A DNA stretch of 64,000 nucleotides from Candidatus Saganbacteria bacterium (GCA_016932255.1 JAFGDE010000009.1:66114-130113); one strand, 5' to 3'. Positions 6,041 to 64,000 are shown, counted from the first letter of the stretch. Made by a program: numbers and translations. The notes: generated from the letters alone by a model not told the origin.

Positions 6041-6150
6041 TTAAAGTGCCTCCCGAATTAAATGAGCATCTTGTTTCTACTACAGAATATATCGTATTTT
6101 AAGCTTCTAAGCTTGCATGTTTTACCGTTCCCAGACATCGGAGAATTGGG

Positions 6151-45336: not shown

Positions 45337-46430
45337 TGCGACTGGCCATAGTTCATGATTATCTGAACCAATTCGGCGGCGCCGAGCGGGTCGTTTCCAC
45401 GCTGCACGAGATCTGGCCTGAGGCGCCGATCTATACTTCGATCTATGATCCGGCAGCTATGCCCGAGCAATTCAGCCGCATGGATATCAGGGTCTCTTTT
45501 ATGCAGAACCTGCCGCTGGTCAGGCGCTTCTTCAAGGTTTATTTTTTCCTCTATCCGCTGGCCTTTGAACGTTTTGACCTGAGCGAATATGACGTGATCC
45601 TGTCGTCCAGTTCGGCTTACGCCAAAGGCGTGCGCAAGCGCCCCGGCCAGCTGCATGTTTGCTATTGTCATACTCCGGCCAGGTTCCTCTGGCGCTATGA
45701 CGATTATGTCGCCCGGGAAAACATCCCGGCGGTTTTCCGGCATGTCCTGCCTTTCCTGATCGAGCCGATCAGGCAATGGGACCGGAGCAATTCCGGGCAG
45801 GTCGATCTTTTTGCGGCAAATTCGCAGAATGTGGCCGAGCGCATCCGGCAGACTTACGGGCGGGAATCTGTTATAATTAATCCGCCGGTAGAGAGCGCTC
45901 TGTTCCAGCCGTCGAGCGTTACGCTTGATTATTTTTTAGTGGTTTCGCGCCTGGCGGCTTATAAACGGCTTGATATCGTGATCGAGGCCTTCAATCGCCT
46001 TGGCCTGCCGCTCAAGATAATCGGCAGCGGTTTGGCCAGGCGCCAGCTGGAGAAACTCGCCGGACCGGAGATCGAATTCCTGGGCAGGGTCAGTGAGGCA
46101 CAGCTGGCCAAACACCTGGCTGAATGCCGGGCCCTGATCTTTCCGGGAGAAGAGGACTTTGGCATCGTGCCGCTGGAAGCCATGGCCTCAGGCCGCCCTG
46201 TGATAGCTTATCGCGCGGGCGGGGCGCTGGAAACCGTCATTGACGAAGTGACAGGGATCATGTTCGATGAACAGACGCCGCATTCACTGGAGCTGGCGCT
46301 CAAGCGTTTCCAGTTCGAGAGTTTTGACAAAGCGGCGCTGAGATCTCATGCTGTCGGTTTTGATAAAGAGGTCTTTAAAAGTAAGATCAGGGAGCTGGTC
46401 GAGACCAAGGCAAGGGAAAGGGACCTATGA
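45336..46430 (+). CDS. glycosyltransferase family 4 protein
   Basis: 364 aa. N-terminal IVHDYLNQFGGAERV and the C-terminal GT-B EX7E-like region (PGEEDFGIVPLEAMASG). Confidence 0.85.
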   Translation: MRLAIVHDYLNQFGGAERVVSTLHEIWPEAPIYTSIYDPAAMPEQFSRMDIRVSFMQNLPLVRRFFKVYFFLYPLAFERFDLSEYDVILSSSSAYAKGVRKRPGQLHVCYCHTPARFLWRYDDYVARENIPAVFRHVLPFLIEPIRQWDRSNSGQVDLFAANSQNVAERIRQTYGRESVIINPPVESALFQPSSVTLDYFLVVSRLAAYKRLDIVIEAFNRLGLPLKIIGSGLARRQLEKLAGPEIEFLGRVSEAQLAKHLAECRALIFPGEEDFGIVPLEAMASGRPVIAYRAGGALETVIDEVTGIMFDEQTPHSLELALKRFQFESFDKAALRSHAVGFDKEVFKSKIRELVETKARERDL

Positions 46431-48976
46431 AAAAGTTGAAACAATTGCTGCGCTGGGATGATTCGCGTGTCTTTGATCTGGCGATCGAAGGACTTATCCT
46501 GGTCGTGATACTGCTCATGCCGACGATCTTTGACCGAAGGCTGGGCATTGTCTTTTCCGGCACCAAGACGGCTTGGATGCGAGCTTTTGGCGCGGTGATC
46601 CTGGGTATCTGGGCGATCAAGCTCATCGTGACCAAACAGCACAGGTTTTTCCGGACGCCGCTTGACTGGCCGGTGCTTTCTTTTCTCCTTTGCACTACGG
46701 TCGCTACGTTATCTTCGGTCCATGTCTATACCAGCATCGTGGGGTTTTACGGCCGTTACGAGGGCTTGACCAGCTGGTATCTCTTTGGTCTGTTCTTTTT
46801 TGTGGTCACGAATTACATCCGTTCCTTTAACCAGCTCAAACGGGCGGCTATGATGGTCATCCCGGCGGCAACATTAATGGCGGTCTATTCAGTGCTCCAG
46901 CGCCACGCGCTCGATCCTTACATGTGGGGTGGGGTAGTCACCTGGCAGCGGGTCATCGGCACGATCGGCCAGCCCAACTTCCTGGCTGCATATATGCTGA
47001 TGGCTTTCTTTATCAATTTGGCTTTGATCATGATGAGAAAAGAAGCACGGCCTAAGGCTGCCTGGCATGACGGTGTTTTCCCGCTGGGCTGTTTTGCCTT
47101 TTCCCAGCTGACCTTCATTGCTATGATCTATAATCTTGAGGCGTATAACATTCTACTCTGGTATCTTGGTTTTACGATCTATACAGTGACTTCGCTGTTG
47201 TTCGTCTATACCTATGAACAACTGCCGCCCAGGGCGCTCAATCTTTTATTGGGCTTTACTCTACTGATAAATTATATTTCGATCCTCTACACCCAGAGCC
47301 GCGGAGGGTATCTTGGCCTGTTCACCGGACTGGTCCTTTTTCTCGGCCTGGCCGGCCGCGATTGGATATTTATTAATCGGCGAAAACTGCTGGCGGTAGG
47401 CGCGCTGATCCTGCTGATCTCCGGCGTGACCATGTCCCGGCCGGAATATTCCCCGTTCGCCCGCTTTGCCTCTGAGATCAAGACAGAACAGGTCGATGAG
47501 GAGCAAAAGGTTGAGGAGCAGCCGGCTGAAGGCGCGGCGGAAGAGAAAGAAAGCAAGCTTGTTCTGGAGGGCGCTGCGGGATCGCGCGGTGAGACCTGGA
47601 AATCGGCCTTTTGCATAGTCGCTGATTATCCGGTCTTTGGCATCGGCCCGGAAGTGCTTAAAATGGTCTTTCCCCGCTATGAAACAGACCTGTTCCGTTT
47701 TAAGGAAACATTTCATGTCAAGCAGGACCGCTGTCACAATGAGACCTTTGATGTCCCTGTGACCAAGGGTCTGCTGGCATTTTTTGTCTTTGTTTGGCTC
47801 TTGTTTACGCTGTTCAAGGTCGGCTGGCGCAAAAACAGCAGCTTGACGGGCAATGAGCGTAGCCTCTTGGTCGGCCTGCTCGGCGCGGCCTTGGCGTTCA
47901 TCATCCAGAACCAGTTCAGTTTTGGGGTCGTGGCGATCACTTCTCTGTTCTGGATGATCTGGGCTATGGTCATGGTCGTTGGTGAACGAGAAGAATCTCA
48001 AAAAACAGTTAACGTCAAATGGTCTGATCTGCCTTGGTTCCAGGTGGCGGCGGTCCTTGCCCTAGTTTGTTTAATGATCTATGTTTCTTTCTTTTCCTTC
48101 CGCGGCGATGTCTGGTTTAAATCAGGTAAAACTCAGATGCAGGTCCGGCGCTTTGATCAGGCGGTCGCTGATCTGAACAGGTCGCTTGATGTCTTTCCTT
48201 TTGAAGGGGGTACGGTTTCCCATTTAGGCATCTGTTATCTTAATCTCAGTAATATGAAACCGGAAGAGAGGATGAAGAATGTCGGCGAAGCGCTCAGGAT
48301 CTTCACCTATGGTACGGAGATCGACCCTTATAACGCTGATAATTTCTATCTCCTGAGCAAGATATTATTTTCTATGAACGATCTGGCCAGAGCCAAAGAG
48401 AAGGCGGATATAGCGATTAAAATAGACCCGTACTATGCTGAGGTCTACCACTTAAGGGGGCTGCTCTACGAACGTTTAGGCCAGAATGACCTGGCAGCGT
48501 CCGATTATCAAAAAGCTTTTATGATCAATCCCGGCCTGAGCGAGCCGATGCATAATCTTATTCTGCTAAATCGGCGTCTGAACAAAGAATCGGCCAGTCT
48601 TGCTGTTTTTGATCAGGCACTCAAACGTTATGGTGATCACCCCAGTATTTTGGAAACTGCCACCAAGTTGTATCTGCAGGCCGGCAGGATCGATCAAGCC
48701 AAGGCTACAGCTGCCCGGATGCTCAAGGTCTCACCAAAGTATCTGCCGGGTTATGTGCTGCGCGCAGCAGTGGCGATGCAGGAGGGACGACTGGAGGATG
48801 CTTACGCCGATCTGCAGCAGGTCTTAATGGACGATCCCAAGAATGTCAGCGCGCGCCTGGAGCTGGGCCGGCTTTACCTGATGAAAGGGCAAAGAGCCAG
48901 AGCCAGGCAGGAATTCGAACAAGTGCTGCGGCTTGACCCGAACAATGTTTTTGCCAGGCAGCTGCTGCAGCGGTAG
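46427..48976 (+). CDS. O-antigen ligase-like polytopic membrane protein fused to C-terminal TPR repeats
   Basis: 849 aa. About 12 TM helices with a Wzy_C-like loop (YTQSRGGYLG), followed by multiple TPR units in the last roughly 300 aa. Confidence 0.8.
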   Translation: MKKLKQLLRWDDSRVFDLAIEGLILVVILLMPTIFDRRLGIVFSGTKTAWMRAFGAVILGIWAIKLIVTKQHRFFRTPLDWPVLSFLLCTTVATLSSVHVYTSIVGFYGRYEGLTSWYLFGLFFFVVTNYIRSFNQLKRAAMMVIPAATLMAVYSVLQRHALDPYMWGGVVTWQRVIGTIGQPNFLAAYMLMAFFINLALIMMRKEARPKAAWHDGVFPLGCFAFSQLTFIAMIYNLEAYNILLWYLGFTIYTVTSLLFVYTYEQLPPRALNLLLGFTLLINYISILYTQSRGGYLGLFTGLVLFLGLAGRDWIFINRRKLLAVGALILLISGVTMSRPEYSPFARFASEIKTEQVDEEQKVEEQPAEGAAEEKESKLVLEGAAGSRGETWKSAFCIVADYPVFGIGPEVLKMVFPRYETDLFRFKETFHVKQDRCHNETFDVPVTKGLLAFFVFVWLLFTLFKVGWRKNSSLTGNERSLLVGLLGAALAFIIQNQFSFGVVAITSLFWMIWAMVMVVGEREESQKTVNVKWSDLPWFQVAAVLALVCLMIYVSFFSFRGDVWFKSGKTQMQVRRFDQAVADLNRSLDVFPFEGGTVSHLGICYLNLSNMKPEERMKNVGEALRIFTYGTEIDPYNADNFYLLSKILFSMNDLARAKEKADIAIKIDPYYAEVYHLRGLLYERLGQNDLAASDYQKAFMINPGLSEPMHNLILLNRRLNKESASLAVFDQALKRYGDHPSILETATKLYLQAGRIDQAKATAARMLKVSPKYLPGYVLRAAVAMQEGRLEDAYADLQQVLMDDPKNVSARLELGRLYLMKGQRARARQEFEQVLRLDPNNVFARQLLQR

Positions 48977-48984
48977 ATAAAACA

Positions 48985-50376
48985 ATGATAAAATTCATTC
49001 TGGACGCGGTCTTTATCGTTGTTTCTTTTATTCTGGCCTATTTCTTCAGGTTCAGGATACTATTATTTGTTTCTCCGCCCGGTACACCGGTATTGGACCA
49101 GTACGTGGAAGTCCTGATCTTTATTATGCTGATCTGGCTGGCCCTCTTCAAGCTGATCGGTCTTTATGAAGAGAAGCGGTTCTCTTCGCTGATCGATGAA
49201 TTAGCCTTGGTCTTCCTGGGAGTTTCCCTGGCCACGCTGGTCATGCTCGGCATGCTCTTCCTTTACCGCGAATTCTGGTTCTCGCGGCTGGTCGTGGTCA
49301 ATGCCTGGTGGATCGCCTTCTTTATCCTGGCGGTCGTCCGGATCGTGCTCTTTACCATTAAACGGAGACTGCGTCTGAGAGGCTGGGGAATAAGGAACGC
49401 TCTGATCCTGGGCGCAGGCGAAATGGGCCAGGTGCTGGCAGCCAAGATCTCCCAGGACCGGACCCTGGGTTATCGGATCCTTGGTTTTCTCGATGATGAT
49501 CAGGCCAAGCGTGGCAAGACCTACTATGACGTCCGTGTGCTGGCCGAGGTCGCTGCGGTCAGCCGGTTGATCAAGGAGCTCAAGATCGAGGAGGTCATTA
49601 TCGCCAGCTCTAAGTTCCCGGCCCAGAAGGTCCTTGATATCATCACGGAGTGCGAGCGTTACGGGATCGAGTTCAAGCTCGTGCCAGGCATCCTGGAGTT
49701 GATCGCTTCGCGGGTCGATTCCGATGAGCTGGGCGGCATTCCCCTGCTGACCGTTTCAGAGATCCAGCTCAAAGGTTTTAATGCGCTGGTCAAGCGCGCC
49801 ACCGATATTCTTCTGTCAGTGCTTTGCTTGATCATATTAAGCCCACTCTTGCTCATTTTCGCTTTGCTGGTGAAAGTCACTTCTGCCGGTCCGGCATTCA
49901 TTTTTCAGGACCGAGTCGGACTTGATGGTAAGACCTTTAAAATGTTCAAGTTCCGCTCCATGGTGGAGAATGCCGAGGCCCTCTTCCCCGAACTGGCGCC
50001 TCTGTCTGAAACGGAAGGTAATATTTTTAAGATGAAGAATGATCCCAGGATCACGCCTTTGGGTAAATTTATGCGGCGCCGGAGCATAGATGAATTGCCG
50101 CAATTGCTCAATGTTGTGTTCGGGCAGATGAGCATGGTCGGTCCCAGGCCGCCCTTGCCCCGTGAGGTTGTGAAATATACTTCCTGGCACATGAAACGGC
50201 TGCGCGTGCGGCCGGGCATTACCGGCCCCTGGCAGGTCTCCGGCAGGTCCCTGCTGCCGTTTGAAGAAATGGTCAGACTGGATATCCACTATATCGAGAA
50301 CTGGTCGCTCTGGCTCGACCTGAAGATCCTGCTCAGGACGGTCCCGGTAGTTGTTTTTGGCCAGGGAGCTTACTGA
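48985..50376 (+). CDS. polyprenyl glycosylphosphotransferase (bacterial sugar transferase, WbaP-like)
   Basis: 463 aa. N-terminal TM bundle, a central Rossmann-like region, and a C-terminal Bac_transf domain (KFRSM...DELPQL.NV..G.MS.VGPRP). Confidence 0.88.
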   Translation: MIKFILDAVFIVVSFILAYFFRFRILLFVSPPGTPVLDQYVEVLIFIMLIWLALFKLIGLYEEKRFSSLIDELALVFLGVSLATLVMLGMLFLYREFWFSRLVVVNAWWIAFFILAVVRIVLFTIKRRLRLRGWGIRNALILGAGEMGQVLAAKISQDRTLGYRILGFLDDDQAKRGKTYYDVRVLAEVAAVSRLIKELKIEEVIIASSKFPAQKVLDIITECERYGIEFKLVPGILELIASRVDSDELGGIPLLTVSEIQLKGFNALVKRATDILLSVLCLIILSPLLLIFALLVKVTSAGPAFIFQDRVGLDGKTFKMFKFRSMVENAEALFPELAPLSETEGNIFKMKNDPRITPLGKFMRRRSIDELPQLLNVVFGQMSMVGPRPPLPREVVKYTSWHMKRLRVRPGITGPWQVSGRSLLPFEEMVRLDIHYIENWSLWLDLKILLRTVPVVVFGQGAY

Positions 50377-53018
50377 CAGACCACGATCTTGCCCCGCCTG
50401 GTCTCTGTCCTGCTGCTGTTCTGAGCGGAGAAGAAAAAGGGATAAATGCCGTTGCTGACCGTCCGGCCGAATTGGTCGATCCCGTTCCAGGCCGTGACCT
50501 GACTGCCGCTGATATTGTTCTGTTTGCTGATCCAGATCAGTGTTCCTGTCAGGTCGTATATCCTTATGGTCACATCGGCAGGCTGGACCAGGGAATAGCT
50601 GAAGACCATGCCTTTGCCCTGGTCGGAAAAAGCCCCGGCCAGTTGCTGGCGGGGCGAAAATGGGTTGGGGCCGTGGACCAGCCCGCCGATCAGGCTGTCG
50701 CAAGATGCGGCCGAAGCAAAGGTCCTGAGCGTAGCCTGGGCCAGGTTGCCGGCTTTATCGGCTGCTTCCAGCCTGATCTCATTATTGCCGCTGACCAGAT
50801 CGATATCGGTCGAGAAATAGCTGCCGTTCAACTCGAAATCCTTGATCTTCTTATTGTTCAGGTAAATGGCTAATGAGGCCGGATTAAGGTCATTGACCAG
50901 GCCTGTGATGACCAGCTTTTCCTGGTGGGTCTGCGGTTCACAACTGCTCGTTATGGTCAGCATGGGGGAGGTATGGTCATAGACCAGGGTAAAGATAGTT
51001 GCAGCAGCGGTGTTGCCGACCAGGTCGCGCGGCGCGACCTTAACTTCATAGGTGCCTTCCAGCACCAATTGCTTGCACGACAGTATCAGCTGGTCGTTTT
51101 CCTCGCTGGCTTCGCTTTCAAGGGTCAGGCCGTTTATCTCGATCAGGGTCCCGCACAGGTCCAGGCCGGCGCCGCTGTCGGTGAGCGGCAGGCTGATCCG
51201 CTCGGCCTGGCTGGCATAACAATTGCCGTCGGCAGCAAGTTGCAGTTCCGGCGGTGAACGGTCAATCTTCAGGGCCAGACAGGTCGAGCCTGTGTTGCCG
51301 GCCTGATCCGTTAATTTAATGGTCAGGCAATTGCTGCCTTCTACCAGATCTTCGGCCAGCTGCAAGAAACCGTAAAGGCTTTTCAGCTCGGCATCGTAGG
51401 CCAGAACAGCCTCGACCGCTGCGCCATTCAGCTCAAGTTCAGCCGGGCAGCCGTCGGCCAGATCGTTCTGCAGGTCAAAGATAGAGGCTTCGATAACGAC
51501 GACCGAACCGGCCGCGAACCAGGAATCCGCTGCTGGAGAGATGACCTGGATCTCAGGAGAAGCTGCGTTATAAAAGACCTCTTTGGTTATCAAGGAGAAA
51601 TTACCTGCTTCATCGCTGGCCATAATGGTAAAGATGTTATTGCCGGCTTCCAAAGTGATCTTTGCTGTAAAACTATTATCCGCCTCCCAGGAAATGGCCG
51701 TGCTGTTGAGGGAGAGGCTGATCGGCGTTTCGTTCAATTTGCCGCTTAGACTGGCCTGGTCAATACTGCGGACCGCTTCCCAGGAAATGAGACCGGGCGC
51801 GGTCCTGTCAACAGTGAAGGCCAGCGCTTGGCTGGTTTGGCTTTGCCGCAGGCCATCTGTTGCCTTTGCCCGGATGAAATATCGGTTCTCCGGCACATCA
51901 TCCGGCAGCGGCACAGGGATCGTTGCGCCTGTTCCCGCAGTAGCGACAAGGGTCAGGCTCTGGGTGCTGCCGGTGTTGAAAGAACTGTTGGTTGACAGCT
52001 CGAATTCACACGACAGCGGACGATCGCCGGGCAGATCGGCGCTCGGAACCCGGCCTTGGAGCTTAGGCGCGGCCAGTTCCGGGAGGATCAATTCCGTTAA
52101 TAGCACAGTGTCGCTGAAGGTTGCCGCATACCAGCGGCCATTTTTTTGCCCCAGGGCATAGACAACCTGGTCTATATTTAGCAGCTGGGGCTGGCTGAAA
52201 TTCTCTCCTTTATCCGGAGAAGCTGAATAATATGAAGCATAACGACCGTTGTATTCGTTATGCCAGAGGATCAGCAGACTGCCTGGTGCCGGCTGCTGCA
52301 GCCTCAGGCCGGCGATCTCATCCTGGGAAACCGCCAGGCTGTTAGCTGACCGCGTTGTCACATTGGTCAACAGTTCCGGCGACCAGGCGAGGGACCTGAT
52401 CTGCCTGATGCTGCCCAGGGCAGCACTGCTGATAAAGCATAACTGGACCCTGCCGTCCGGATCGAGTTGTAGCCTTGGTGAACTGAGGCTTTCGTCTGTC
52501 AAGTTGACGGTCAGCTGGTGCGTGAAAGTCCTGCTCTGGTCCAGGCTGGCTTGCAAATGGATCTCCTGCCCGGATTGCCAGGCAACAGCGATCCTGTTGT
52601 CGAGCACTGCCACGGCCGGATCGCGGCCCGTATCTGATATCAGCAGGGCAGGGCTGAAAGAGCGGCCATTGTCAATTGAACCGGCCAGAAAGATACCCGG
52701 CTGGCCTTTGAGGGAATAGACCAGATAGGCTTGCTGGCCTGAACTTGAAACGTCAAATGATTCCGGAGAACCGCTGAAACTAAAACTGGTCTGGGCAAAG
52801 CCGGTGCCTGGATCCAAATGTTGCAAACTAACGGCCGGGCATTCGCCGGATGAGGTCGAGAGCCAATAAGCCTCTGTCTGTCCCCATTCATCCATATCGA
52901 TCAAGGCCGGGACAGCTGCTGTGGCTGTTGCGGCTAAGCACACCACTACTGCTAGCGATAAAGATATTTTACCGATAGTCATCCGCTTGAATTCTAGCAT
53001 GGCCTCGCGATAAATCAA
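50370..53018 (-). CDS. large secreted protein: Asp-box (BNR-like) region + Ig-like repeats + FlgD-Ig/T9SS-type C-terminal domain
   Basis: 882 aa. Signal peptide, Asp-box-like SIDNGRSF and SLDQSRTF, and a C-terminus NPFSP...VTIRIYDLTGTLI...WNGIDQFGRTVSNGIYPF...RGKIVV. The start codon is uncertain (TTG at 53018 or ATG at 52982). Confidence 0.65.
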   Translation of the reverse strand: MIYREAMLEFKRMTIGKISLSLAVVVCLAATATAAVPALIDMDEWGQTEAYWLSTSSGECPAVSLQHLDPGTGFAQTSFSFSGSPESFDVSSSGQQAYLVYSLKGQPGIFLAGSIDNGRSFSPALLISDTGRDPAVAVLDNRIAVAWQSGQEIHLQASLDQSRTFTHQLTVNLTDESLSSPRLQLDPDGRVQLCFISSAALGSIRQIRSLAWSPELLTNVTTRSANSLAVSQDEIAGLRLQQPAPGSLLILWHNEYNGRYASYYSASPDKGENFSQPQLLNIDQVVYALGQKNGRWYAATFSDTVLLTELILPELAAPKLQGRVPSADLPGDRPLSCEFELSTNSSFNTGSTQSLTLVATAGTGATIPVPLPDDVPENRYFIRAKATDGLRQSQTSQALAFTVDRTAPGLISWEAVRSIDQASLSGKLNETPISLSLNSTAISWEADNSFTAKITLEAGNNIFTIMASDEAGNFSLITKEVFYNAASPEIQVISPAADSWFAAGSVVVIEASIFDLQNDLADGCPAELELNGAAVEAVLAYDAELKSLYGFLQLAEDLVEGSNCLTIKLTDQAGNTGSTCLALKIDRSPPELQLAADGNCYASQAERISLPLTDSGAGLDLCGTLIEINGLTLESEASEENDQLILSCKQLVLEGTYEVKVAPRDLVGNTAAATIFTLVYDHTSPMLTITSSCEPQTHQEKLVITGLVNDLNPASLAIYLNNKKIKDFELNGSYFSTDIDLVSGNNEIRLEAADKAGNLAQATLRTFASAASCDSLIGGLVHGPNPFSPRQQLAGAFSDQGKGMVFSYSLVQPADVTIRIYDLTGTLIWISKQNNISGSQVTAWNGIDQFGRTVSNGIYPFFFSAQNSSRTETRRGKIVVCQ

Positions 53019-53081
53019 GCCCGGAAACGCTCCGACCGGCTTTACGGGCGGAGCATTATCGGCTATAATTAAAGGTCAGCC

Positions 53082-54224
53082 ATGAAGGGTGCCAATAAAA
53101 AGATAATCATAGTTGGGGCGGGGCCGGTCGGCTGTTATCTGGGCCAGTTGTTGAAACAGCAGGGTTTTGATCCATTGCTCCTGGAAGAGCATGCTGAGAT
53201 CGGCCGGCCTGTTCAGTGCGCCGGCATTGTCGGCCGGGGGATATTCGAGGAGACCAGGTTCCCGATCTCTCAAAAGTCCATTCAGAATACGATCGACGGT
53301 TCGCATGTGCACTTCAATGGTTCCTCCTTTGTTCTCAACCGCGGCCGGGTCGCTTATATCATTGATCGCGCTGTCTTTGATCAGGAGCTGAGCAAGGGGT
53401 TGCGCGTTGAGTTCAATACCCATGTTCAGCAGGTCAGCCAGATCAAGTCAGGCTTTATCCTCAAGACCAATAACGGGGAATATTATGCCGATCTGGTCAT
53501 CGGGGCTGACGGGCCGAACTCCCGCGTCAGAAAATCGCTGGAATTCTCTTCCGACATGAAACTATACCGCGGCTACCAGTACCGGATCAAGCTGGAACCC
53601 AGACATCAGAACATGGTCGAGGTCCATTATGTCAAGCCGTTCTCGCTGTTCACCTGGGTCATTCCCGAGGGCAATGGCACGGTCAGGATCGGCACGATCT
53701 CGCCGAACCCGTATCAGGAACTTAACGGTTTTATTGAGAAGATAGGGTATAAGGGCGAGGTACTTGAAAAGAATGCCGGCGCTATCCCGATCGGTACCTG
53801 CCAGCTGGTCAAAGGCCAGGCGGCGCTGGTAGGAGACGCGGCCTGCCAGATCAAACCGATCACTTCCGGAGGAATTTATTACGGCATCAAGTCCGCAGAG
53901 CTGCTGGCTGAAGCGATCAAAGAGAACGATCTGGGACTTTATGACCGCCGCTGGAAAGAGGAATTCGAGCAGGAGATCAGGATCTGTCTGCTGACCCGTA
54001 ATGTGCTGGAGAATATGGATGATAATGTCTTGAAAAAGGTCTTCACTTATGTTAAGGACAATGCCACGCTGATAGAGAAGATCGGCGATTTTGAGAACCA
54101 TTCTTCGATCCTCTGGAGCCTGGTCTTTAATCCCAGGACCTACCCGACGATCGGTTCGCTGCTTATGGGCATGGCCAAAAATCCGAAGTTCATCCTGCGC
54201 TCCCTGCTGAGGTCGCCGCGCTGA
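53082..54224 (+). CDS. geranylgeranyl reductase family FAD-dependent oxidoreductase
   Basis: 380 aa. IIIVGAGPVGC dinucleotide-binding motif, GADG.NS.VR and GDAA motifs. Confidence 0.8.
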   Translation: MKGANKKIIIVGAGPVGCYLGQLLKQQGFDPLLLEEHAEIGRPVQCAGIVGRGIFEETRFPISQKSIQNTIDGSHVHFNGSSFVLNRGRVAYIIDRAVFDQELSKGLRVEFNTHVQQVSQIKSGFILKTNNGEYYADLVIGADGPNSRVRKSLEFSSDMKLYRGYQYRIKLEPRHQNMVEVHYVKPFSLFTWVIPEGNGTVRIGTISPNPYQELNGFIEKIGYKGEVLEKNAGAIPIGTCQLVKGQAALVGDAACQIKPITSGGIYYGIKSAELLAEAIKENDLGLYDRRWKEEFEQEIRICLLTRNVLENMDDNVLKKVFTYVKDNATLIEKIGDFENHSSILWSLVFNPRTYPTIGSLLMGMAKNPKFILRSLLRSPR

Positions 54225-54226
54225 AA

Positions 54227-54823
54227 ATGAGACGCTGCGGTCTGGCCCTCCTTCTGGCTGGCTTGGTTCTCCTGGGGGCATGCCTGTTATATCCTTTTAT
54301 TCTTGAGTCGGCTGCCAGCTGGCTGATCGTGCGCCATGATCTTGCGCCTGTTGACTGCATCATCGTGTTGGGCGGCGATAATAATGGTGAACGCGTCAGG
54401 GAAGCGGCTGGGCTTTACCATCAGGAATACGCGCCAAAGGTCTTGCTCTCGGGCGGGCCGCTGGCCTGGGAGCTGTCAGCGGCTGATTGGATGAAAAAAC
54501 AGGCCCTCACGCTTGGCGTTCCCTCACGTGATATCCTGCTGGAAAAGGAGTCTGAATCAACGATCGGCAACGCGCTCTTCAGTTTACAGGCCGTCAAAAA
54601 GATCAAGGCCGGTTCAGTCATCCTGGTCACATCACCGACACATAGCCGCCGGGCCTACAGGGTTTTCAACAAGGTCTTTGGCAGGGAAGGGATAAAAGTG
54701 ATCTCCTGGCCGGCGCGGGAGCCTAAGTTCAGGCTTGAGCGCTGGTGGACCAGGCATGAGGACAGTCAGCAAGTGCTCTGGGAATACGCTGCCCTGGTCT
54801 TTTATCGATTGAAGCTATACTGA
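54227..54823 (+). CDS. YdcF/ElyC family (DUF218) protein
   Basis: 198 aa. N-terminal TM, IIVLGG and VTSPTHSRRA segments of DUF218. Confidence 0.78.
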   Translation: MRRCGLALLLAGLVLLGACLLYPFILESAASWLIVRHDLAPVDCIIVLGGDNNGERVREAAGLYHQEYAPKVLLSGGPLAWELSAADWMKKQALTLGVPSRDILLEKESESTIGNALFSLQAVKKIKAGSVILVTSPTHSRRAYRVFNKVFGREGIKVISWPAREPKFRLERWWTRHEDSQQVLWEYAALVFYRLKLY

Positions 54824-54839
54824 TGTCCCGGGTCTATGT

Positions 54840-54845
54840 TATAAT
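54840..54845 (+). promoter_or_regulatory. extended -10 box (TGtTATAAT)
   Basis: ctaTGTTATAATgacc, followed by an AGAGGGG Shine-Dalgarno sequence and the TTG start at 54869. Confidence 0.4.
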
Positions 54846-54868
54846 GACCGCGATAGAGGGGTGTTCTA

Positions 54869-55894
54869 TTGGCTAAAGATATCGTTCTGGTGACCGGCGG
54901 TGCCGGCTATATTGGTTCTGTTTTAGTCAAAAAACTCCTGGAAAAAGGGGAAAAAGTCAGGGTTGTTGATAAGCTTTACTTTGGCGACTCAGCCCTGGCT
55001 GATATTCGCGGCAAGATCGAGCTTAAGGCCGGGGATGTGCGTCAGTTCGATCCGGATCTCTTAGACGGTGTCAAGTGCGTCATGCACCTTGGCTCGCTCT
55101 CCAACGATCCGACAGCGGAATTCGACCCGAAAGCCAATAAGGAGATCAATTTTGAAGGCACGATGAGGGTGGCTGAAGCCTGCAAGAGAAAAGGCGTTAA
55201 AAAGTTCACTTTTGCTTCTTCCTGCGCTATATACGGGTTTCATGTTGACGATATTGCCGACGAAGATCATTCGACCAACCCCCAATCCGAGTATTCCCAG
55301 AGCAAGCTGGACGCGGAGAACGGCTTGCGTTCACTGGTCAGCGCTGCTTTTTGCCCGGTCATGCTCAGGCAGGCGACTGTTTTTGGCTTTTCCAACAGAA
55401 TGCGCTGGGACCTGGTGGCTAATACCATGACCAAGGATGCCTTTGCCAGCGACCGTATACACGTCTACTGCGCCGGTGACAACTGGCGGCCGCTGGTGGA
55501 CGTCAATGACGTAGCAGAAGCGCATATTGCTATGATGCAAGCTCCTGATGATAAGGTCAAAGGCCAGGTCTTTAACCTGGTGCACAAGAACTATCGTATC
55601 CTTGAACTGGGCCATTGGATCGCAGAGATCATTAAGCCGAAGCAGAAAATTGAGGTCAATGTCCTTTTTGGCTCAAAAGAATCCCGCAGTTACCGGGTAG
55701 CGGGAGACAAGATCAGCCAGGTCACCGGGTTCGAACCTAAAGTCACTGTTGAGGATGCTGTTAGATCGATCTGGCAGGTCCTGCATTCAGGCCGCTACAC
55801 TGATTTCACCAATCCTATTTATTACAATATCGAGTGGATGAAACTGCTTGTCGACATGGAGCAGAAACTAAAGCTGATCGGAAAGGTCTTTTAA
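54869..55894 (+). CDS. NAD-dependent epimerase/dehydratase (extended SDR)
   Basis: 341 aa with a TTG start. GGAGYIGS motif and the YSQSK catalytic YxxxK. Confidence 0.85.
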   Translation: MAKDIVLVTGGAGYIGSVLVKKLLEKGEKVRVVDKLYFGDSALADIRGKIELKAGDVRQFDPDLLDGVKCVMHLGSLSNDPTAEFDPKANKEINFEGTMRVAEACKRKGVKKFTFASSCAIYGFHVDDIADEDHSTNPQSEYSQSKLDAENGLRSLVSAAFCPVMLRQATVFGFSNRMRWDLVANTMTKDAFASDRIHVYCAGDNWRPLVDVNDVAEAHIAMMQAPDDKVKGQVFNLVHKNYRILELGHWIAEIIKPKQKIEVNVLFGSKESRSYRVAGDKISQVTGFEPKVTVEDAVRSIWQVLHSGRYTDFTNPIYYNIEWMKLLVDMEQKLKLIGKVF

Positions 55895-58694: not shown

Positions 58695-58725
58695 ATGCAA
58701 GTTCAAGCGCCTGAATTACGATAAT
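58695..58725 (+). promoter_or_regulatory. promoter-like motif copy A: ATGCAAGTT-caagcgcctgaat-TACGATAAT
   Basis: Read directly from the sequence. It is intergenic, about 40 nt upstream of the ATG at 58767. Confidence 0.55.
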
Positions 58726-58766: not shown

Positions 58767-59669
58767 ATGAAAAAGTTTCTTGTTCTGCTATCTGCCATTT
58801 TGATCGTCACTTCTGTCTGTTTCGCGCAAGAGAACATGGGTGCCAGGCCGATCGCCATGGGTGGCGCTTTTACCGGGCTGGCGGACGATGCCAATGCCAT
58901 TTTTCTCAACCCGGCCGGTATCGGCTATATTGAGGGCGAGGTCGCTGCTATTTCGACCAAGATCTCGGAAGGCAGTGAATATACCATCCTGGGCGGGGTC
59001 GAAAACACGCCTTACGGCAGTTTCGGTGTAGGCTACATCAGCTCATCTTACATTATTGAAGACCTGGAAACATCATCGGAGCTGGTAGATGCCGGGGACG
59101 CTTCGAACAAGAATTTAAACCAGACCTTGGTTTTGTCCTACGGCAGGCAGCTCAATGACTTCATGGTCGTGCCGAAATTCATGGGACGCTTGTCCCTGGG
59201 CACGAACGTCAAATTTGTCAGTTCCAAGATCAATAACGCCAAAGGCCTGACCAGCAGATCTGATTCAGGCCTGGACCTTGACCTGGCCGCTGTTTTTCAG
59301 CCTAATGATCATATCTCCTGCGGCATGAGCGTCAGGAATATTCTTGCTGCTGGGTCGGCCCTGGAGGACAGTTCAGAACCGTCCAGCCCGACCATGTCAG
59401 CTGGCATCGCCGGCAGGCTTCTTAATGATTCTTTGATCATCAGCCTGGAAACAGGCGCCGCTGGTGTGGAAGTTAAACTGATGCCGGAGCTGGCCTTAAG
59501 GGTCGGACGCGACGGCGACTATACGACCGGCGGGATAGGCGTCAGCCTCAATGGTGTTGGCATTGACTATGCTTATCTGAAAAAAGCCGAGCCTGTTCAT
59601 TACATAGCGATCTCGCTGGCTTTTGACAATCCGACCGATACCAGACAGGCGAGCATTATTAAGGAGTAG
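58767..59669 (+). CDS. outer-membrane beta-barrel protein, PorV/PorQ-like
   Basis: 300 aa. Signal peptide ending CFAQE. The N-terminal GARPIAMGGAFTGLADDANAIFLNPAGIG signature, as I recall it for PorV/PorQ-type barrels. Alternating beta-strand pattern. AAGGAGG Shine-Dalgarno sequence. Confidence 0.6.
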   Translation: MKKFLVLLSAILIVTSVCFAQENMGARPIAMGGAFTGLADDANAIFLNPAGIGYIEGEVAAISTKISEGSEYTILGGVENTPYGSFGVGYISSSYIIEDLETSSELVDAGDASNKNLNQTLVLSYGRQLNDFMVVPKFMGRLSLGTNVKFVSSKINNAKGLTSRSDSGLDLDLAAVFQPNDHISCGMSVRNILAAGSALEDSSEPSSPTMSAGIAGRLLNDSLIISLETGAAGVEVKLMPELALRVGRDGDYTTGGIGVSLNGVGIDYAYLKKAEPVHYIAISLAFDNPTDTRQASIIKE

Positions 59670-59773: not shown

Positions 59774-60493
59774 ATGATCATATTAAAATTCCTGTTCTCA
59801 TTGTTCTTTTGGGTCTATATCCAGCTTGGGATCCTGCTTGTGCTGATCTTGTCGCTGCCGGCCAATCTGCTGCCTAACAGGGGCAGGGCTTTCAATTACG
59901 CTTTGGCCAAGCTGCTGCTCAGGCTGCTCTTCTTTATAAGTTTTTTCAGGATAAGATTAAAAAGCGGCCAAAAAGTCGGCTTGGTGAACAGGGAGATCTT
60001 GATCGCCAATAAACCGGACCTGCTATCCACCTTTGCCTTGATCATCTCATTGCCGCGCCAGGTGCGGTTTGTCGCTGCCGAGAATATATTTTATATACCT
60101 TTCTTTGGCTGGCTGCTTAAGGCCATCGGCTGTATCCCGGCGGGAAAAAAACTTGGAGGTCCGCTGGGCTTTGCAGTTTCAGTGATGGCAGCGATGAAAC
60201 AGAACGAGGCTGTCTTGTTCTATCCCAGGAACCTGAGGCGTTTTAACGGCCGAGTCAGCGAGTTCAAGCCGGGAGAGATAAGCGTAGCCAGATCGGCCGG
60301 AGCGACCCTGCTGCCTTTGGTTGTGACCGGCACAAAAAAGCTGATCAAACGGGGCAGTGTCCTGCTCTGGCCCGGGGCGATCGAGATAACCGTTCATGAG
60401 CCTGTTACGCCGGCTGAGCTGGGATCGGTCGATACGGTCATGGCCAGGCTCACAAGGCTTTATCAGGGTGAATTACCGTTTGAAGGGGATTGA
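59774..60493 (+). CDS. lysophospholipid (PlsC-type) acyltransferase homologue with degenerate catalytic motifs
   Basis: 239 aa. N-terminal TM and PlsC-like block II (FFGWLLKAIGCIP). Block I reads NKPDLLS instead of NHxSxxD (60008-60028). Block III reads FYPRNLRR instead of FPEGTR (60218-60241). Confidence 0.65.
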   Translation: MIILKFLFSLFFWVYIQLGILLVLILSLPANLLPNRGRAFNYALAKLLLRLLFFISFFRIRLKSGQKVGLVNREILIANKPDLLSTFALIISLPRQVRFVAAENIFYIPFFGWLLKAIGCIPAGKKLGGPLGFAVSVMAAMKQNEAVLFYPRNLRRFNGRVSEFKPGEISVARSAGATLLPLVVTGTKKLIKRGSVLLWPGAIEITVHEPVTPAELGSVDTVMARLTRLYQGELPFEGD

Positions 60494-60496: not shown

Positions 60497-60688
60497 GTGT
60501 TATTTTGGGGAATAATCATTTTTCTTGTTATTATGCTTATTTTAACAGGTCTTTGGATGATCGTTTATTCAAGCCGCTCTTCACGGGCCAGGCAAGGCCT
60601 GCGTCAGCTTGACCGGTCGGTCGCTGAATTTGACCGCCGGATCACAGAGGCAATCGATACCCTGGACCGAGCCGCTGAAAAAAAATAA
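60497..60688 (+). CDS. small bitopic protein (N-terminal TM + charged helix)
   Basis: 63 aa. The GTG start comes after a GAAGGGGA Shine-Dalgarno sequence, 4 nt after the upstream stop. Confidence 0.45.
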   Translation: MLFWGIIIFLVIMLILTGLWMIVYSSRSSRARQGLRQLDRSVAEFDRRITEAIDTLDRAAEKK

Positions 60689-60699
60689 TCATAAGCCCC

Positions 60700-60730
60700 A
60701 TGCAAGTTATTTGCCGCTGATCCCGATAGT
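60700..60730 (+). promoter_or_regulatory. promoter-like motif copy B1: ATGCAAGTT-atttgccgctgat-CCCGATAGT
   Basis: Read directly from the sequence. It is the first of two tandem copies upstream of 60816. Confidence 0.5.
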
Positions 60731-60762
60731 ATTCAATGAGAGATAGTAAATTATGCTTTTTT

Positions 60763-60793
60763 ATGCAAGTTATCGGCTTGTTGATACGATAGT
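60763..60793 (+). promoter_or_regulatory. promoter-like motif copy B2: ATGCAAGTT-atcggcttgttga-TACGATAGT
   Basis: Read directly from the sequence. It lies 22 nt upstream of the ATG at 60816, with a GGGAGGAG Shine-Dalgarno sequence in between. Confidence 0.55.
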
Positions 60794-60815
60794 TAGGTAG
60801 AGGGAGGAGTAGCTC

Positions 60816-61220
60816 ATGACAACTTGGGGAGTAAGTCCGGTCGGCGTCAGCACGGTTGGTACTGCTGATGCGTCAAGGACCGGCACCACCAGACATCTCA
60901 ATCCTGATCAGAGGTTCCGTTCGGAAGTCGGCCAGGCCGGCCAGGCCGGCTGCGACGCGATCGGCGGCACCAGCACCCGGGATGCTGAAGATGCTTTTGT
61001 TTGTTATGATAATAATGGCTATCAGCAGTCGCATCGCGGCTCGCTGTTTGAATGGATGGCTTACGGCATTGGCCGCCTGTTCGGGTTATACGATGTTGCC
61101 GGTGAGGCGCCTGATGTGCAGCAGCCGGACACAGCCGCGGCTGATGTCCTGCCGGGTGCTGGTGGAAGCGAGACCGCTCCCGGAACAGGCATTCCATCAT
61201 CTTTAACAGGGACTTATTAA
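60816..61220 (+). CDS. hypothetical protein
   Basis: 134-aa ORF with a strong Shine-Dalgarno sequence. No TM, signal peptide or family recognised. Confidence 0.5.
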   Translation: MTTWGVSPVGVSTVGTADASRTGTTRHLNPDQRFRSEVGQAGQAGCDAIGGTSTRDAEDAFVCYDNNGYQQSHRGSLFEWMAYGIGRLFGLYDVAGEAPDVQQPDTAAADVLPGAGGSETAPGTGIPSSLTGTY

Positions 61221-61221
61221 A

Positions 61222-61449
61222 ATGTGGGAATTTATCGTTCAAAACTTTAATTGGTTCACTTTCTTCCTGGCGCTGGGCGTTTTTGCCCTGCTGCAGAGCA
61301 TAGTGAATTTCCTGATCGCCCGTTCCGCCAGAAAGAGGGCGCGTCAAAGAACAGCGGTTGCTGAACAGAAGTACCAGGAACTTAAAGGCAAATTTGAGAC
61401 TAAGAAGCAGGAATACGACCAGATCTTAGGCACCAAGGAGGCCAAGTAA
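61222..61449 (+). CDS. small bitopic protein (N-terminal TM + Lys/Glu-rich helix)
   Basis: 75 aa. The start lies 1 nt after the upstream stop. Same design as the 63-aa protein at 60497. Confidence 0.5.
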   Translation: MWEFIVQNFNWFTFFLALGVFALLQSIVNFLIARSARKRARQRTAVAEQKYQELKGKFETKKQEYDQILGTKEAK

Positions 61450-61452
61450 GCC

Positions 61453-62925
61453 ATGACCGGCCCTAACGGCATATTAGTACCAGGAGCAACAGCTCACGCG
61501 ACGGCTGCGCCGGCTGTGACCGCGGCTGCCAGCAGCCAGCCTGATCAGGTTGGCGATCCCCGGTATTCACGCTCCTCGGCTCTTCTGGTCGTGCGTGAAT
61601 GGGATCCCCTGACCAACGAAGGCGACGAGAACAACGGCGCCATTGCTGATGCGCTGGTCGCCCAGATGGGGCCGGAAGATGAAACTCCCGGCCAGCTGAC
61701 CTTTGATGAGTTCCGCGAGGCCACCGGTTTTGATGACATGACCGAAGAGGCCTGGAACGCCATGATCGGCTTTGATCAGGGCAATACCCAGCTGGGTACA
61801 GGCGCGGCTGAAGGCGAGTTCGTTGTCAAGGACCTGAGGCACCTGGCCAGCTATTTGCAGCAGTTCCGCTTCTATACCGAGATCACCGGAGTGAATTTTG
61901 ACCGTTTTGCCAGATGGGAAAATATCACCATCGTGCCGAGGGAGCAGCTGCTCCAGTACATGATGTCCCTGAGCGAGCAAGGGATACGCGACCTGGTCCA
62001 CGGCATTAATTACCAGCACGCACTCCAGGCCCTGCGCCGGCTGGGCATCGTTAATATCGATGACCTGCCGGGCACTGATCAGGGCCGGCTTGAAGATGCT
62101 ATGGTCGAGGCGGTTATTCGATTGCAGGACGCTGCAGCCGGCAGCGGGCCGGCGGCTTTGCGCGCCAGACACGTCCTGAGCATGATCGGCCTGTTGACCC
62201 TGGGCCGGCTCAATGAACAGGTCGAGGATGAACATGGCAAGCCCGGCTTGGCTGCCGAGCGTTACGGCCTGCGGGACCCTCTGGCCGCGCGGCATTTCCT
62301 GAACACGGTCTTTACGTCCTATATCGCCGGAGAGACCATTTCCGACGAACAGCTTGAGGCTCTTGAAGGATTCTCTGATTCTGTCGGCCTGCTGCGGGAA
62401 GCTGCTGGCGATAATGTTGAGTTGAACCAGAAGATCGACAACGCTGATTATGAGTCTGAGGAGTTCCAGCAGGTGCTGGGCATGATCGATGGCTCGGCCA
62501 CCCATGAAGACGGTTCTGATTATACCGAGGTCGAGATCCAGGCCGCTATCAGGGACCTGCCGCAGGTCTTGACCCACACACCGGGTTCAACGACCCATTC
62601 AGCTGCTTCAGGCACCCTGGTCCCGCATCTACCTGGCGCTGTGCCTGGCCAGCCTGAACTGACCGTGGAAGATATCGAGATCACGCCGGCCCCTGTTAGC
62701 CAGGATGAGAGCCCTGAAGAAGCTGCTGCAGAAGGATCAGGAGAAGTTGCAGAAGAATCAGAGGAAGTTACGGAAGAACCAGAGGCAGCTGCCGCAGAAC
62801 CAGAAGCAGATGAGCCGGTGACTGATGAAACAAGCGGTACTGATGGGATCGAACCAGCAGCTATTCCCGTAATGCCTGAAGAGCAGCATGCTGTTGGGTA
62901 TCAGCCCATGGCTATCGTTGTTTAA
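61453..62925 (+). CDS. hypothetical acidic protein with Glu/Pro/Ala-rich C-terminal tail
   Basis: 490-aa ORF with an AAGGAGG Shine-Dalgarno sequence. No TM, signal peptide or family recognised. Confidence 0.55.
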   Translation: MTGPNGILVPGATAHATAAPAVTAAASSQPDQVGDPRYSRSSALLVVREWDPLTNEGDENNGAIADALVAQMGPEDETPGQLTFDEFREATGFDDMTEEAWNAMIGFDQGNTQLGTGAAEGEFVVKDLRHLASYLQQFRFYTEITGVNFDRFARWENITIVPREQLLQYMMSLSEQGIRDLVHGINYQHALQALRRLGIVNIDDLPGTDQGRLEDAMVEAVIRLQDAAAGSGPAALRARHVLSMIGLLTLGRLNEQVEDEHGKPGLAAERYGLRDPLAARHFLNTVFTSYIAGETISDEQLEALEGFSDSVGLLREAAGDNVELNQKIDNADYESEEFQQVLGMIDGSATHEDGSDYTEVEIQAAIRDLPQVLTHTPGSTTHSAASGTLVPHLPGAVPGQPELTVEDIEITPAPVSQDESPEEAAAEGSGEVAEESEEVTEEPEAAAAEPEADEPVTDETSGTDGIEPAAIPVMPEEQHAVGYQPMAIVV

Positions 62926-62972
62926 AGCCTATTAAATTCCCCTTTAATTAGCCCAAAAACCAGCTTATTTCT

Positions 62973-63003
62973 ATGCAAGTTTTACCCTGCTGATTACGAT
63001 ATA
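62973..63003 (+). promoter_or_regulatory. promoter-like motif copy C: ATGCAAGTT-ttaccctgctgat-TACGATATA
   Basis: Read directly from the sequence, in an intergenic position. An in-frame ATG (63012) lies 9 nt after the downstream box. Confidence 0.55.
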
Positions 63004-63011
63004 TAAGTAGA

Positions 63012-64000
63012 ATGGTTAATGTCGGAGATGTATCACAATCCCAACAAATAGCTGAGGAGCAGATGCAGGACCAGGTTGCTGGTGCCGGCGCTGAGCCTGA
63101 GTATCTCATTAATAACTCCATCCAGATGCAAGGGCTTGAAGCGGCCGACACTGCTGAGATCTCCGGCGGGCTATATTGCACTTCATCGGCCGTTGCTGAG
63201 GCTATTATCAGATGCAGTTCCGGGTCCGAGGACGAGGAACAGTACATCGAGAACACCACTGAGTACGAAGAAAAGGTCGGCGGCAGCGGTGGCGGTGGCA
63301 CGGAAGAGCCCTCGGGGACTTCCGGTTCTTCAGGGACTTCCGGCTCCTCCGGCACCTCGAATTCCGGCTGGTCAGGCGCCTATGACGCGCTCAAATCTTA
63401 TGAAGACAGCCTCATGGACGATGTCTTTGGTTTTGATGATGAAGACTTCATGACCCAGAACTCCGACGGCTACTGGGAGCTTGATGCCGAGGCCTTGCTG
63501 GCCTGGCAGATGAAACTGCTCAAGAAAGCCAATACCATGGGCTGTATGATGATCATGATGTCCAGCCCGTCCGAATGCCGGGCCATTGTTGAGGAAACGC
63601 TCACTGAAGTGCCTATTGAGGTCGAGGACGGCAAGAACTCATACAAGGAAGTCTATGCCCGCAGGATGGGCTTGATCCAGAAACTTGTCGGCACCGCTAT
63701 CAGCACCCTCTTTAAACAGATCAATGACCGCAACCAAAAGATCTATCAGCAGAAACTAGATGAGATCCAGGCGGAGAACGAAGGCTGCGGTGCGGATACC
63801 GCGAACTTTATAACCGGCGGCAAAGGCGATATCGAGACCCAGGAAAAAGCCCTGCAGGAAACCTGTGAATATCTTGAGGCTTCCAAATCAGCCCTGGCGG
63901 CAATGCAGGAAGTTGTCCGCTCATTGATGGAATTCCTTAAGGAAAGCGCGGCTGCCGGCGATATCGGCGCCATGGGCATGATCGATGCGCTGAAAAAGTT
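63012..64000 (+). CDS. hypothetical protein, 3'-truncated by the window end (Gly/Ser/Thr linker + helical region)
   Basis: It is absent from the ORF track because no stop is reached. In my own translation this frame is open from the ATG at 63012 to 64000. An alternative start is the ATG at 63063, after GAGGAG. It contains GGSGGGGTEEPSGTSGSSGTSGSSGTS, encoded by about 18-nt repeats. Confidence 0.55.
   Translation, partial: MVNVGDVSQSQQIAEEQMQDQVAGAGAEPEYLINNSIQMQGLEAADTAEISGGLYCTSSAVAEAIIRCSSGSEDEEQYIENTTEYEEKVGGSGGGGTEEPSGTSGSSGTSGSSGTSNSGWSGAYDALKSYEDSLMDDVFGFDDEDFMTQNSDGYWELDAEALLAWQMKLLKKANTMGCMMIMMSSPSECRAIVEETLTEVPIEVEDGKNSYKEVYARRMGLIQKLVGTAISTLFKQINDRNQKIYQQKLDEIQAENEGCGADTANFITGGKGDIETQEKALQETCEYLEASKSALAAMQEVVRSLMEFLKESAAAGDIGAMGMIDALKK

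Follow-up and report, generated by a model that had tools for sequence, protein, structure and literature searches.

What switches on, and what is made by, a tightly packed set of genes that no known protein family claims? This question is raised by positions 60497-64000 of a 64,000-nucleotide (nt) stretch of Candidatus Saganbacteria DNA (GCA_016932255.1, JAFGDE010000009.1:66114-130113), hereafter the window, in which all of the open reading frames (ORFs) named in the segment lie on the plus strand. Among non-photosynthetic groups, this lineage is the closest sister of Cyanobacteria/Melainabacteria; to our knowledge, it has no cultured member. The segment encodes two mini-proteins of 63 and 75 amino acids (aa), acidic proteins of 134 and 490 aa, and the beginning of a giant membrane protein, and it lies directly downstream of an acyltransferase gene and an outer-membrane β-barrel gene. 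Here, we describe a computational analysis of this segment and of related loci, numbered with the prefix L, which are DNA stretches from related metagenome-assembled genomes (MAGs) and metagenomes (917 kb in total). We give an even chance to the reading that the segment is the promoter-proximal part of a conserved, lineage-restricted gene cluster, lying behind FliA-type promoters, that specifies an envelope-associated module.

Results

A FliA-type promoter motif precedes the cluster genes

The two-block motif TGCAAGTT-N15-CGATA occurs in the window in four exact copies, all on the plus strand, compared with none in 100 shuffled sequences. The first copy (58696..58723) lies 43 nt before the barrel gene. 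A tandem pair precedes the gene of the 134-aa protein; the upstream copy (60701..60728) is 87 nt from its ATG, and the downstream copy (60764..60791) lies 25 nt before the gene and is followed by the Shine-Dalgarno sequence GGGAGGAG. Between the -10 block of the last copy (62974..63001) and the giant ATG there are 10 nt. An earlier note on this DNA had described tandem copies, a further copy before the last ORF and a promoter motif shared by genes that neighbour an outer-membrane barrel, and the exact matches fall where it placed them. When a looser pattern, CAAG-N17-19-CGATA, was searched in the window and nine related loci (230 kb), 44 matches were obtained, nearly all at intergenic sites upstream of cluster genes, and 41 of these were on the gene strand with a spacing of exactly 17 nt. 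The consensus across the 230 kb is ATGCAAGTTTT-N-(A/C)CGATAATATA.

This element has the features of a promoter recognised by σ28 (FliA). The -10 block reads (A/C)CGATA(A/T) in the 4 window copies and in 41 survey copies, the -35 block GCAAGTTT contains an AAGTTT core at invariant spacing, and three of the window copies are followed on the same strand by start codons 10-43 nt downstream. In Bdellovibrio, the experimentally mapped FliA consensus TTAAG-N16-CCGATA heads 92 of 140 attack-phase promoters, many of them serving uncharacterised or cell-surface proteins (PMC3627812), and the Escherichia coli FliA promoter reads TAAAGTTT-N11-GCCGATAA, as in TAAAGTTTCCCCCCTCCTTGCCGATAAC (PMC4183435). By these comparisons the motif, GCAAG-N16-(A/C)CGATA, is a putative σ28/FliA-type promoter. 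Its two-block geometry is identical to that in Bdellovibrio, although the -35 block there is TTAAG rather than GCAAG. Its spacing is one nucleotide longer than that of the E. coli promoter, and the combination of a CGATAA -10 block with the AAGTTT core recalls enterobacterial class 3 flagellar promoters. An extracytoplasmic function (ECF)-type promoter, whose consensus is similar to TGCAAC-N17-CGTC, was ranked below σ28, to which both cores (AAGTTT and CGATAA) and the spacing seen in Bdellovibrio are a better fit.

The arrangement of the motif is preserved in related loci. The barrel orthologue is likewise headed by it in L002, L004, L005, L009 and L011, the tandem pair, 64 bp apart, is kept in L012, and the promoter-to-ATG layout ATGCAAGTTTTACCC...ACGATATATATTATAGAT-ATG is common to seven loci. 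The giant ATG lies 10-12 nt past CGATA in six of the seven aligned loci, and 18 nt past it in L004, a distance that points to a leaderless or near-leaderless mRNA. Unlike the giant gene, the other cluster genes have leaders of 25-43 nt with Shine-Dalgarno sequences. The intergenic gaps of the region showed neither σ70-like promoters nor intrinsic terminators, and the acyltransferase and 63-aa genes, situated behind the barrel gene, have no recognisable promoter of their own. The genes appear to form three motif-headed units: the barrel, acyltransferase and 63-aa genes; a 134-75-490 operon behind the tandem promoter; and the giant gene. A σ70 family gene at L044:5829-6581 (-) precedes a motif-driven homologue of the giant by approximately 0.9 kb.

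The motif-headed genes are conserved and rapidly evolving

Gene order and promoters, including the association of the 134/75/490-aa trio with the barrel, are kept in six related MAGs (L002, L004, L005, L009, L011 and L012). In these relatives an upstream flank of ispF, pdxJ, rpiB and a nucleotidyl (NTP) transferase gene is followed by the barrel gene, the PlsC-like acyltransferase gene, accompanied in some loci by a mini-protein of 54-63 aa, and genes for proteins of 99-134, 73-78 and 336-517 aa and for the giant of 1,765-2,055 aa. Downstream of the giant gene are approximately ten more orphan genes plus glycosyltransferases: first those of four small proteins (~97, 77-92, 108-118 and 103-108 aa), next that of a protein of ~700 aa and those of two proteins measuring 172-176 and 128-136 aa, and then genes for a GT2+TPR glycosyltransferase, a protein of ~533 aa and a coiled-coil protein of ~128 aa, to which L010 adds a CgeB-like glycosyltransferase. 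The more distant loci L007 and L008 lack both the trio and the giant but still encode the barrel, the small proteins and the ~530-aa family. The acyltransferase is found at the same position in L004, L005, L008, L009 and L012 and is absent from L002, L007 and L011.

The degree of conservation was assessed against L012, the closest relative. The acyltransferase is 49% identical to its counterpart, the 63-aa protein 33% (63-aa counterpart, E 6e-7), the 134-aa protein 39% (121-aa counterpart, E 2e-14), the 75-aa protein 48%, the 490-aa protein 43% (517-aa counterpart) and the N-terminus of the giant 54%. Orthologues of the 75-aa protein (73-78 aa) occupy the same position in all six MAGs, the closest being 37-48% identical, and positional counterparts of the 134-aa protein measure 99-123 aa in the five MAGs other than L012. 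The barrel has approximately 43 orthologues of 36-64% identity in MAGs of Saganbacteria/Margulisiibacteriota. For every gene the proportion of nonsynonymous differences (pN, 0.27-0.46) is below that of synonymous differences (pS, 0.63-0.86); synonymous sites are saturated, and for this reason dN/dS was not used and the evidence for purifying selection is restricted to pN being smaller than pS. The pN of cluster genes is about twice that of neighbouring housekeeping genes (0.15-0.20, measured against another relative). Thus, the cluster genes are constrained but fast-evolving. Loss of the gene set from relatives and a lack of selection on it, either of which would have refuted the earlier note, are both contradicted by these data.

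Five orphan proteins are encoded next to a barrel and an acyltransferase

The first unit begins with a PorV/PorQ/FadL-like outer-membrane β-barrel of 300 aa (58767..59669), which is assigned by an NCBIfam match and its orthologues and is the only cluster protein here with a signal peptide. It is followed by a PlsC-like, membrane-anchored acyltransferase of 239 aa (59774..60493; Pfam Acyltransferase, E 2.4e-11) and by the 63-aa protein (60497..60688), which starts with a GTG 4 nt past the acyltransferase stop codon. This bitopic mini-protein has an isoelectric point (pI) of 10.2 and consists of a predicted transmembrane (TM) segment at residues 5-23 and a basic, charged helix. In the second unit, the 134-aa protein (60816..61220; pI 4.4), an ORF with a counterpart in L012, has few predicted regular features and a conserved patch, RGS(L/V)(F/L)EWM(A/G)YG. 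The bitopic 75-aa protein (61222..61449; pI 10.0) starts 1 nt past the preceding stop codon and comprises a short N-terminus, a predicted TM segment at residues 14-32, the stretch RSARKRARQR and a Lys/Glu helix. The 490-aa protein (61453..62925; pI 4.1) contains 89 Asp and Glu residues, has no TM segment and ends in a Glu/Pro/Ala tail that is encoded in part by a 21-nt DNA repeat (3.8 copies). The N-terminal 329 aa of the giant (63012..64000) run off the window. Apart from the start of the last, these five ORFs are present where they were placed by the earlier note, which had also described the two mini-proteins as being of one design; both indeed have an N-terminal TM segment and a charged helix, and they are weak paralogues, with phmmer joining the 63-aa protein to the 75-aa family. 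No hydrophobic N-terminus was predicted for the 134-aa protein, the 490-aa protein or the giant.

The ORFs have the codon usage of real genes. Log-odds scores trained on 27 long window genes were compared in six frames, and in every ORF the annotated frame scored above the other five. The 490-aa, 75-aa and last ORFs reach 0.35-0.44, housekeeping-like in comparison with the reference mean of 0.36; scores for the 63-aa and 134-aa ORFs are lower (0.13-0.18), yet still highest in the annotated frame. A 336-aa antisense ORF has a lower codon-usage score than the sense frame that it overlaps.

Searches for relatives of these proteins returned little, in agreement with the earlier statement that none of the five belongs to a recognisable family. 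Nothing significant was found for them in Pfam, in NCBIfam or by sequence search of the PDB. No window protein or giant has a significant match among the PHROGs, and no anti-phage defence model of PADLOC was satisfied, the sole signal being JetC-like coiled-coil noise at the giant C-terminus. Profile searches of the PDB with the 490-aa family and the giants produced only coiled-coil noise, and those with the ~533-aa and 97-aa families were empty. The 490-aa protein is identical to the hypothetical protein JW782_02940 of a Candidatus Saganbacteria MAG, and in a word-indexed search of 5.8 billion proteins it matched only itself. An exhaustive HMMER scan of 1.84 billion cluster-representative proteins recovered 12 relatives (322-517 aa); identity reaches 44% in the best of these, and E falls below 1e-30 for only 2. 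No known family, fold or system accounts for the proteins or for the cluster; both would be new by exclusion, with no relatives detectable outside Saganbacteria/Margulisiibacteriota in these searches.

An AlphaFold2 (AF2) model of the 490-aa protein built from a 13-sequence alignment (mean predicted local distance difference test score, pLDDT, 68.8; predicted template-modelling score, pTM, 0.61) was used in place of a single-sequence model (pLDDT 39.6), which was discarded. It predicts an all-α core of about 17 helices at residues ~33-375, in blocks mostly of pLDDT 75-93, flanked by disordered Pro/Ala/Glu-rich tails. Foldseek found no match to this model with E < 0.1 in the PDB or in BFVD. At residues ~70-105 the family has a conserved helix-loop-helix, DG.LTR.EF..IF....TEEAWNAF, which looks like a degenerate EF-hand and is duplicated in some members. 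An EF-hand reading of DG.LTR.EF was rejected, as EF-hand and troponin C matches were sub-threshold and the calcium-binding positions 1 and 3 are unconserved. The mini-proteins resemble PspB in size (~63-75 aa), N-terminal TM segment and predicted cytoplasmic charged helix; the matches are, however, sub-threshold (E 0.018-0.035; 15 bits against a cut-off of 90), and no psp genes are nearby. Type VII secretion was likewise rejected, there being no FtsK/SpoIIIE ATPase or WXG100 protein by Pfam in L002, L004, L005, L007-L009 and the small proteins.

The barrel bears on a further possibility, that a type IX-like sorting system (T9SS) operates here in which a PorV/PorQ-like barrel shuttles its neighbours to the surface. 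The 300-aa barrel is closest to the PorV/PorQ family (E 6.6e-19), and a 920-aa metagenome protein with a signal-peptide-like N-terminus and Ig-like domains, motif-driven and encoded at L036:2895-5654 (+), has sub-threshold matches to T9SS sorting domains (CHU_C, E 9e-4; Por_Secre_tail, E 3e-3), which hints at T9SS-like sorting in the lineage. The barrel, however, scores 68.6 bits against a PorV_fam cut-off of 90, and 19.8-29.4 bits against equivalog cut-offs of 220-325. Moreover, the five proteins have neither a Sec signal nor a T9SS C-terminal domain, and no other T9SS component is present in the loci examined, which makes a type IX-like system highly improbable as an account of the segment.

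The last ORF is the N-terminus of a giant repeat protein

The ORF that follows the last promoter copy was present as the earlier note had said, but its start is corrected from ~63063 to the ATG at 63012, since orthologues align from residue 1; this ATG lies 10 nt past the -10 block. The window contains approximately the N-terminal 17% of a protein whose orthologues are 1,765-2,055 aa long; this fragment is 54% identical to the L012 giant (1,932 aa), 39% to that of L005 (1,765 aa) and 35% to that of L002 (1,886 aa). Giants in relatives consist of 4-5 tandem helical repeats of ~200 aa with hydrophobic segments, in which R.(I/L)(A/V)...(F/M)(T/S)G motifs recur ~200 aa apart, and end in a coiled coil of ~400 aa. 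Between three and six Gly/Ala-rich hydrophobic segments are predicted in each. A hidden Markov model (HMM) of a single repeat finds the other repeats with independent E-values (iE) of 1e-5 to 1e-17 and matches the window fragment with an iE of 0.0018 (residues 131-184, counted from the 63063 ATG). The window part comprises an acidic N-domain, a Gly/Ser linker and the first copy of the helical repeat. The Gly/Ser/Thr linker on short DNA repeats reported by the earlier note is there; Tandem Repeats Finder gives a period of 9 at 63315-63358, corresponding to two units of ~18 nt. A word-indexed homology search with this ORF was empty, probably because it was swamped by low-complexity words. Five aligned giants were too divergent for pattern design, and a two-sequence alignment was used for that purpose. 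At L024:3064-13680 (+) the motif also heads an ORF that exceeds 3,500 aa and begins MNSWGKVNNSWG; giant proteins thus seem to be recurrent in the regulon.

These repeats invite comparison with chlamydial Inc proteins and type III translocators, which combine a bilobed hydrophobic hairpin with a coiled coil and similarly have long Gly/Ala-rich hydrophobic segments in a helical or coiled-coil protein that has no signal peptide. The present protein differs in that the unit is repeated 4-5 times in a chain of ~1,900 aa; it is not homologous to them, and injectisome genes were not encountered.

Another idea is that of a prophage or mobile remnant, in which the giant would be tape-measure-like and the small proteins phage ORFans. 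Tape-measure matches were obtained with PDB profiles but were not significant (E 0.02-0.09), coiled-coil PHROG matches were seen with a 129-aa neighbour, and transposases occur in L009 and L012. Against this idea, the cluster occupies the same chromosomal site after ispF-pdxJ-rpiB-NTP transferase in all relatives, it has housekeeping flanks, and base composition is even across 50-64 kb of the window, which gives no sign of a foreign island. PHROG matches fall short of significance and the BFVD search was negative. In a viral collection the motif was found in a few redundant contigs, at loci that with one exception have no further copies, so these matches look like chance; giants were not found in viral contigs. 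A phage origin is therefore scarcely credible.

The motif marks a wider set of small proteins

JGI metagenomes were scanned for the exact motif ATGCAAGTTTT-N13-CGATAAT, yielding at least 120 stretches. Among the matches listed, the first ORFs downstream of the motif are short (median 127 aa), and a hydrophobic N-terminus is present in 4% of them as compared with 24% of the window housekeeping proteins. Pfam gave few matches for 64 motif-driven proteins: a kinase, Ig-like domains, a DUF5723 barrel and a radical-SAM match that is probably due to chance. Many of those listed belong to cluster families (giant, barrel-like, ~533-aa, 97-aa, 77-81-aa and 75-aa), and others form new small families. 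Compared with the remainder of each protein, residues 2-25 contain more Pro, Ser, Ile, Asn and Gln but less Leu and Glu.

A fifth copy of the motif in the window, with one mismatch (ATGCAAGCT...ACGATATA), is intergenic at 6090-6118 (-). It precedes a 130-aa LysM ORF at 5648-6040 (-; Pfam E 3e-8) that has no signal peptide. The LysM protein ends in DTAGTY, and the 134-aa protein in SLTGTY.

Could these be diverged flagellar class 3 genes, encoding leaderless late substrates of flagellar type III export (filament, cap, junction or FlgM-like proteins, or co-secreted factors) to which the GT2-TPR enzyme adds sugars in the cytoplasm? The σ28-type promoter agrees with such an origin, as does the type III-like N-terminal composition, and the GT2+TPR architecture is like that of flagellin glycosyltransferases such as GmaR. 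Enterobacterial late substrates (FliC, FlgK/L, FliD, FlgM) similarly have no signal peptide and have polar, disordered N-termini, and there too small proteins of ~100 aa stand beside larger ones with a TPR-glycosyltransferase nearby. Factors co-secreted by flagellar export are known from Campylobacter and, as MakA, from Vibrio. Furthermore, flagellins (PMC7018530) and FlgV (PMC11607428) have been reported in some Margulisbacteria. The cluster proteins, however, show no sequence or profile similarity to enterobacterial class 3 products: no flagellar family of Pfam or NCBIfam matches them even at E <= 1, and the PDB profile searches with the ~533-aa and 97-aa families gave no match at all. None of the 64 motif-driven proteins is flagellar by Pfam, and no flagellar signature motif was found in the 917 kb by regular expressions, a weak test. 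Finally, the class 3 components of flagella include neither a multi-TM giant nor an outer-membrane barrel. A flagellar identity is on balance quite improbable. The Bdellovibrio FliA regulon, to which we liken the present one, itself reaches far beyond flagellar genes to cell-surface and uncharacterised proteins; the present regulon differs in that no flagellar gene is among the targets sampled here.

Other genes and features of the neighbourhood

A block upstream of the cluster (46427-55894 of the window), kept in all relatives, encodes a Wzy_C+TPR protein, a Bac_transf sugar transferase and, at 50370-53018 (-), a protein of ~880 aa whose orthologues have faint Big_13, Glucodextran_B and FlgD_ig matches. 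It is followed by an FAD oxidoreductase, a DUF218 protein and an epimerase, the last in the window and in L008. This block suggests a larger cell-surface neighbourhood. In different relatives the cluster is interrupted by genes of a mobile or selfish kind, which encode a DDE transposase, a Y1 transposase and a protein of the 23S rRNA-intervening-sequence type, at L012:9850-11343, L009:11518-11910 and L008:12396-12800. Many cluster proteins of the window and L002-L012 end in short hydrophobic tails (MAIVV, VEAVV, TGAGVA, SFVV and GTVV), which could be a shared C-terminal tag.

Discussion

We propose that a FliA-class alternative sigma factor would switch on the envelope module as a single programme. 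Through the Gly/Ala-rich hydrophobic segments in its 4-5 repeats, the giant would be anchored in the cytoplasmic membrane, and the 63-aa and 75-aa proteins would insert with their N-termini out and their C-termini in, such that their basic helices (pI ~10) face the cytoplasm. This orientation follows from the positive-inside rule as read from the sequence, and if the mini-proteins are adaptors they would act at the cytoplasmic face. The acidic proteins that have no signal peptide, namely the 134-aa and 490-aa proteins, together with the N-domain of the giant (pI ~4.1-4.4), may dock at these basic helices. Once docked, they could either stay as a membrane scaffold or leave, independently of Sec, toward the co-regulated barrel.

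The first of these outcomes constitutes a distinct explanation: a scaffold at the cytoplasmic face in which the giant, with its several hydrophobic anchors and its coiled coil, the mini-proteins and their acidic partners form a membrane cytoskeletal or shaping platform, with no export and with a barrel that is merely co-regulated. It commands a real though minor share of our confidence. The barrel alone has a signal peptide, the mini-proteins are predicted to expose their basic helices to the cytoplasm, and some hydrophobic stretches of the giants are ~40-47 aa, long enough for hairpins; if all of the segments were hairpins, the soluble parts of the giant would all lie on the N-terminal, cytoplasmic side. 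The loci examined, in addition, contain no export apparatus. On the other hand, evolution approximately twice as fast as that of housekeeping neighbours and the disordered polar termini are a better fit to surface exposure, as are the protein-glycosyltransferase-like genes and the promoter shared with an outer-membrane barrel. The LysM protein behind the one-mismatch motif, which has no signal peptide, also speaks against a purely cytoplasmic scaffold. Of these features, the fast evolution, the glycosyltransferases, the promoter shared with the barrel and the LysM protein, together with the near-absence of signal peptides from an otherwise structural-looking regulon, lead us to prefer, slightly, export or surface assembly of the candidate module.

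Several results weigh against this interpretation of a FliA-driven envelope module. No sigma factor gene is among the window genes, which are housekeeping and polysaccharide genes, and the σ70 family gene of L044, the only sigma factor gene in the 917 kb, is SigA-like and not FliA-like by region 2. Export ATPase, gate and secretin are all missing from the loci examined; flagellar proteins are absent from the 64 motif-driven proteins, as are flagellar signature motifs from the 917 kb. The N-terminal composition that resembles type III signals is non-specific, missing signal peptides are equally expected of cytoplasmic proteins, and TM topology was derived from simple hydropathy and the positive-inside rule only. 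As to the envelope-associated module postulated by the earlier note, the shared promoter, the neighbouring barrel and conservation make it plausible, and a surface structure or export substrates would be candidate forms of it.

A more specific proposal, which we consider unlikely, is that the module is a Sec-independent export or assembly system of Saganbacteria/Margulisiibacteriota with no homology to secretion systems I-XI. It would comprise a FliA-class sigma regulon of small, fast-evolving proteins that have no signal peptide, with the basic mini-proteins as recruiters, the giant as platform or conduit and the PorV-like barrel as exit. The PorV/PorQ likeness is qualified here by a barrel score below the family cut-off and by neighbours that have no Sec signal or T9SS C-terminal domain.

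The regulatory element, to judge from its two blocks and their spacing, belongs to a kind already known and adds one more case of FliA-type promoters on non-flagellar genes. Its significance is that it marks a whole regulon of unannotated proteins and, within it, a conserved cluster of approximately 10-15 genes with a defined anatomy, including a giant repeat protein and a predicted all-α fold that have no known relatives. If the products are exported, they would represent a new route across the diderm envelope; if they are not, they would form a new membrane-bound scaffold. In either case, a σ28-type factor would appear to act on non-flagellar genes in this lineage, as it does in Bdellovibrio.

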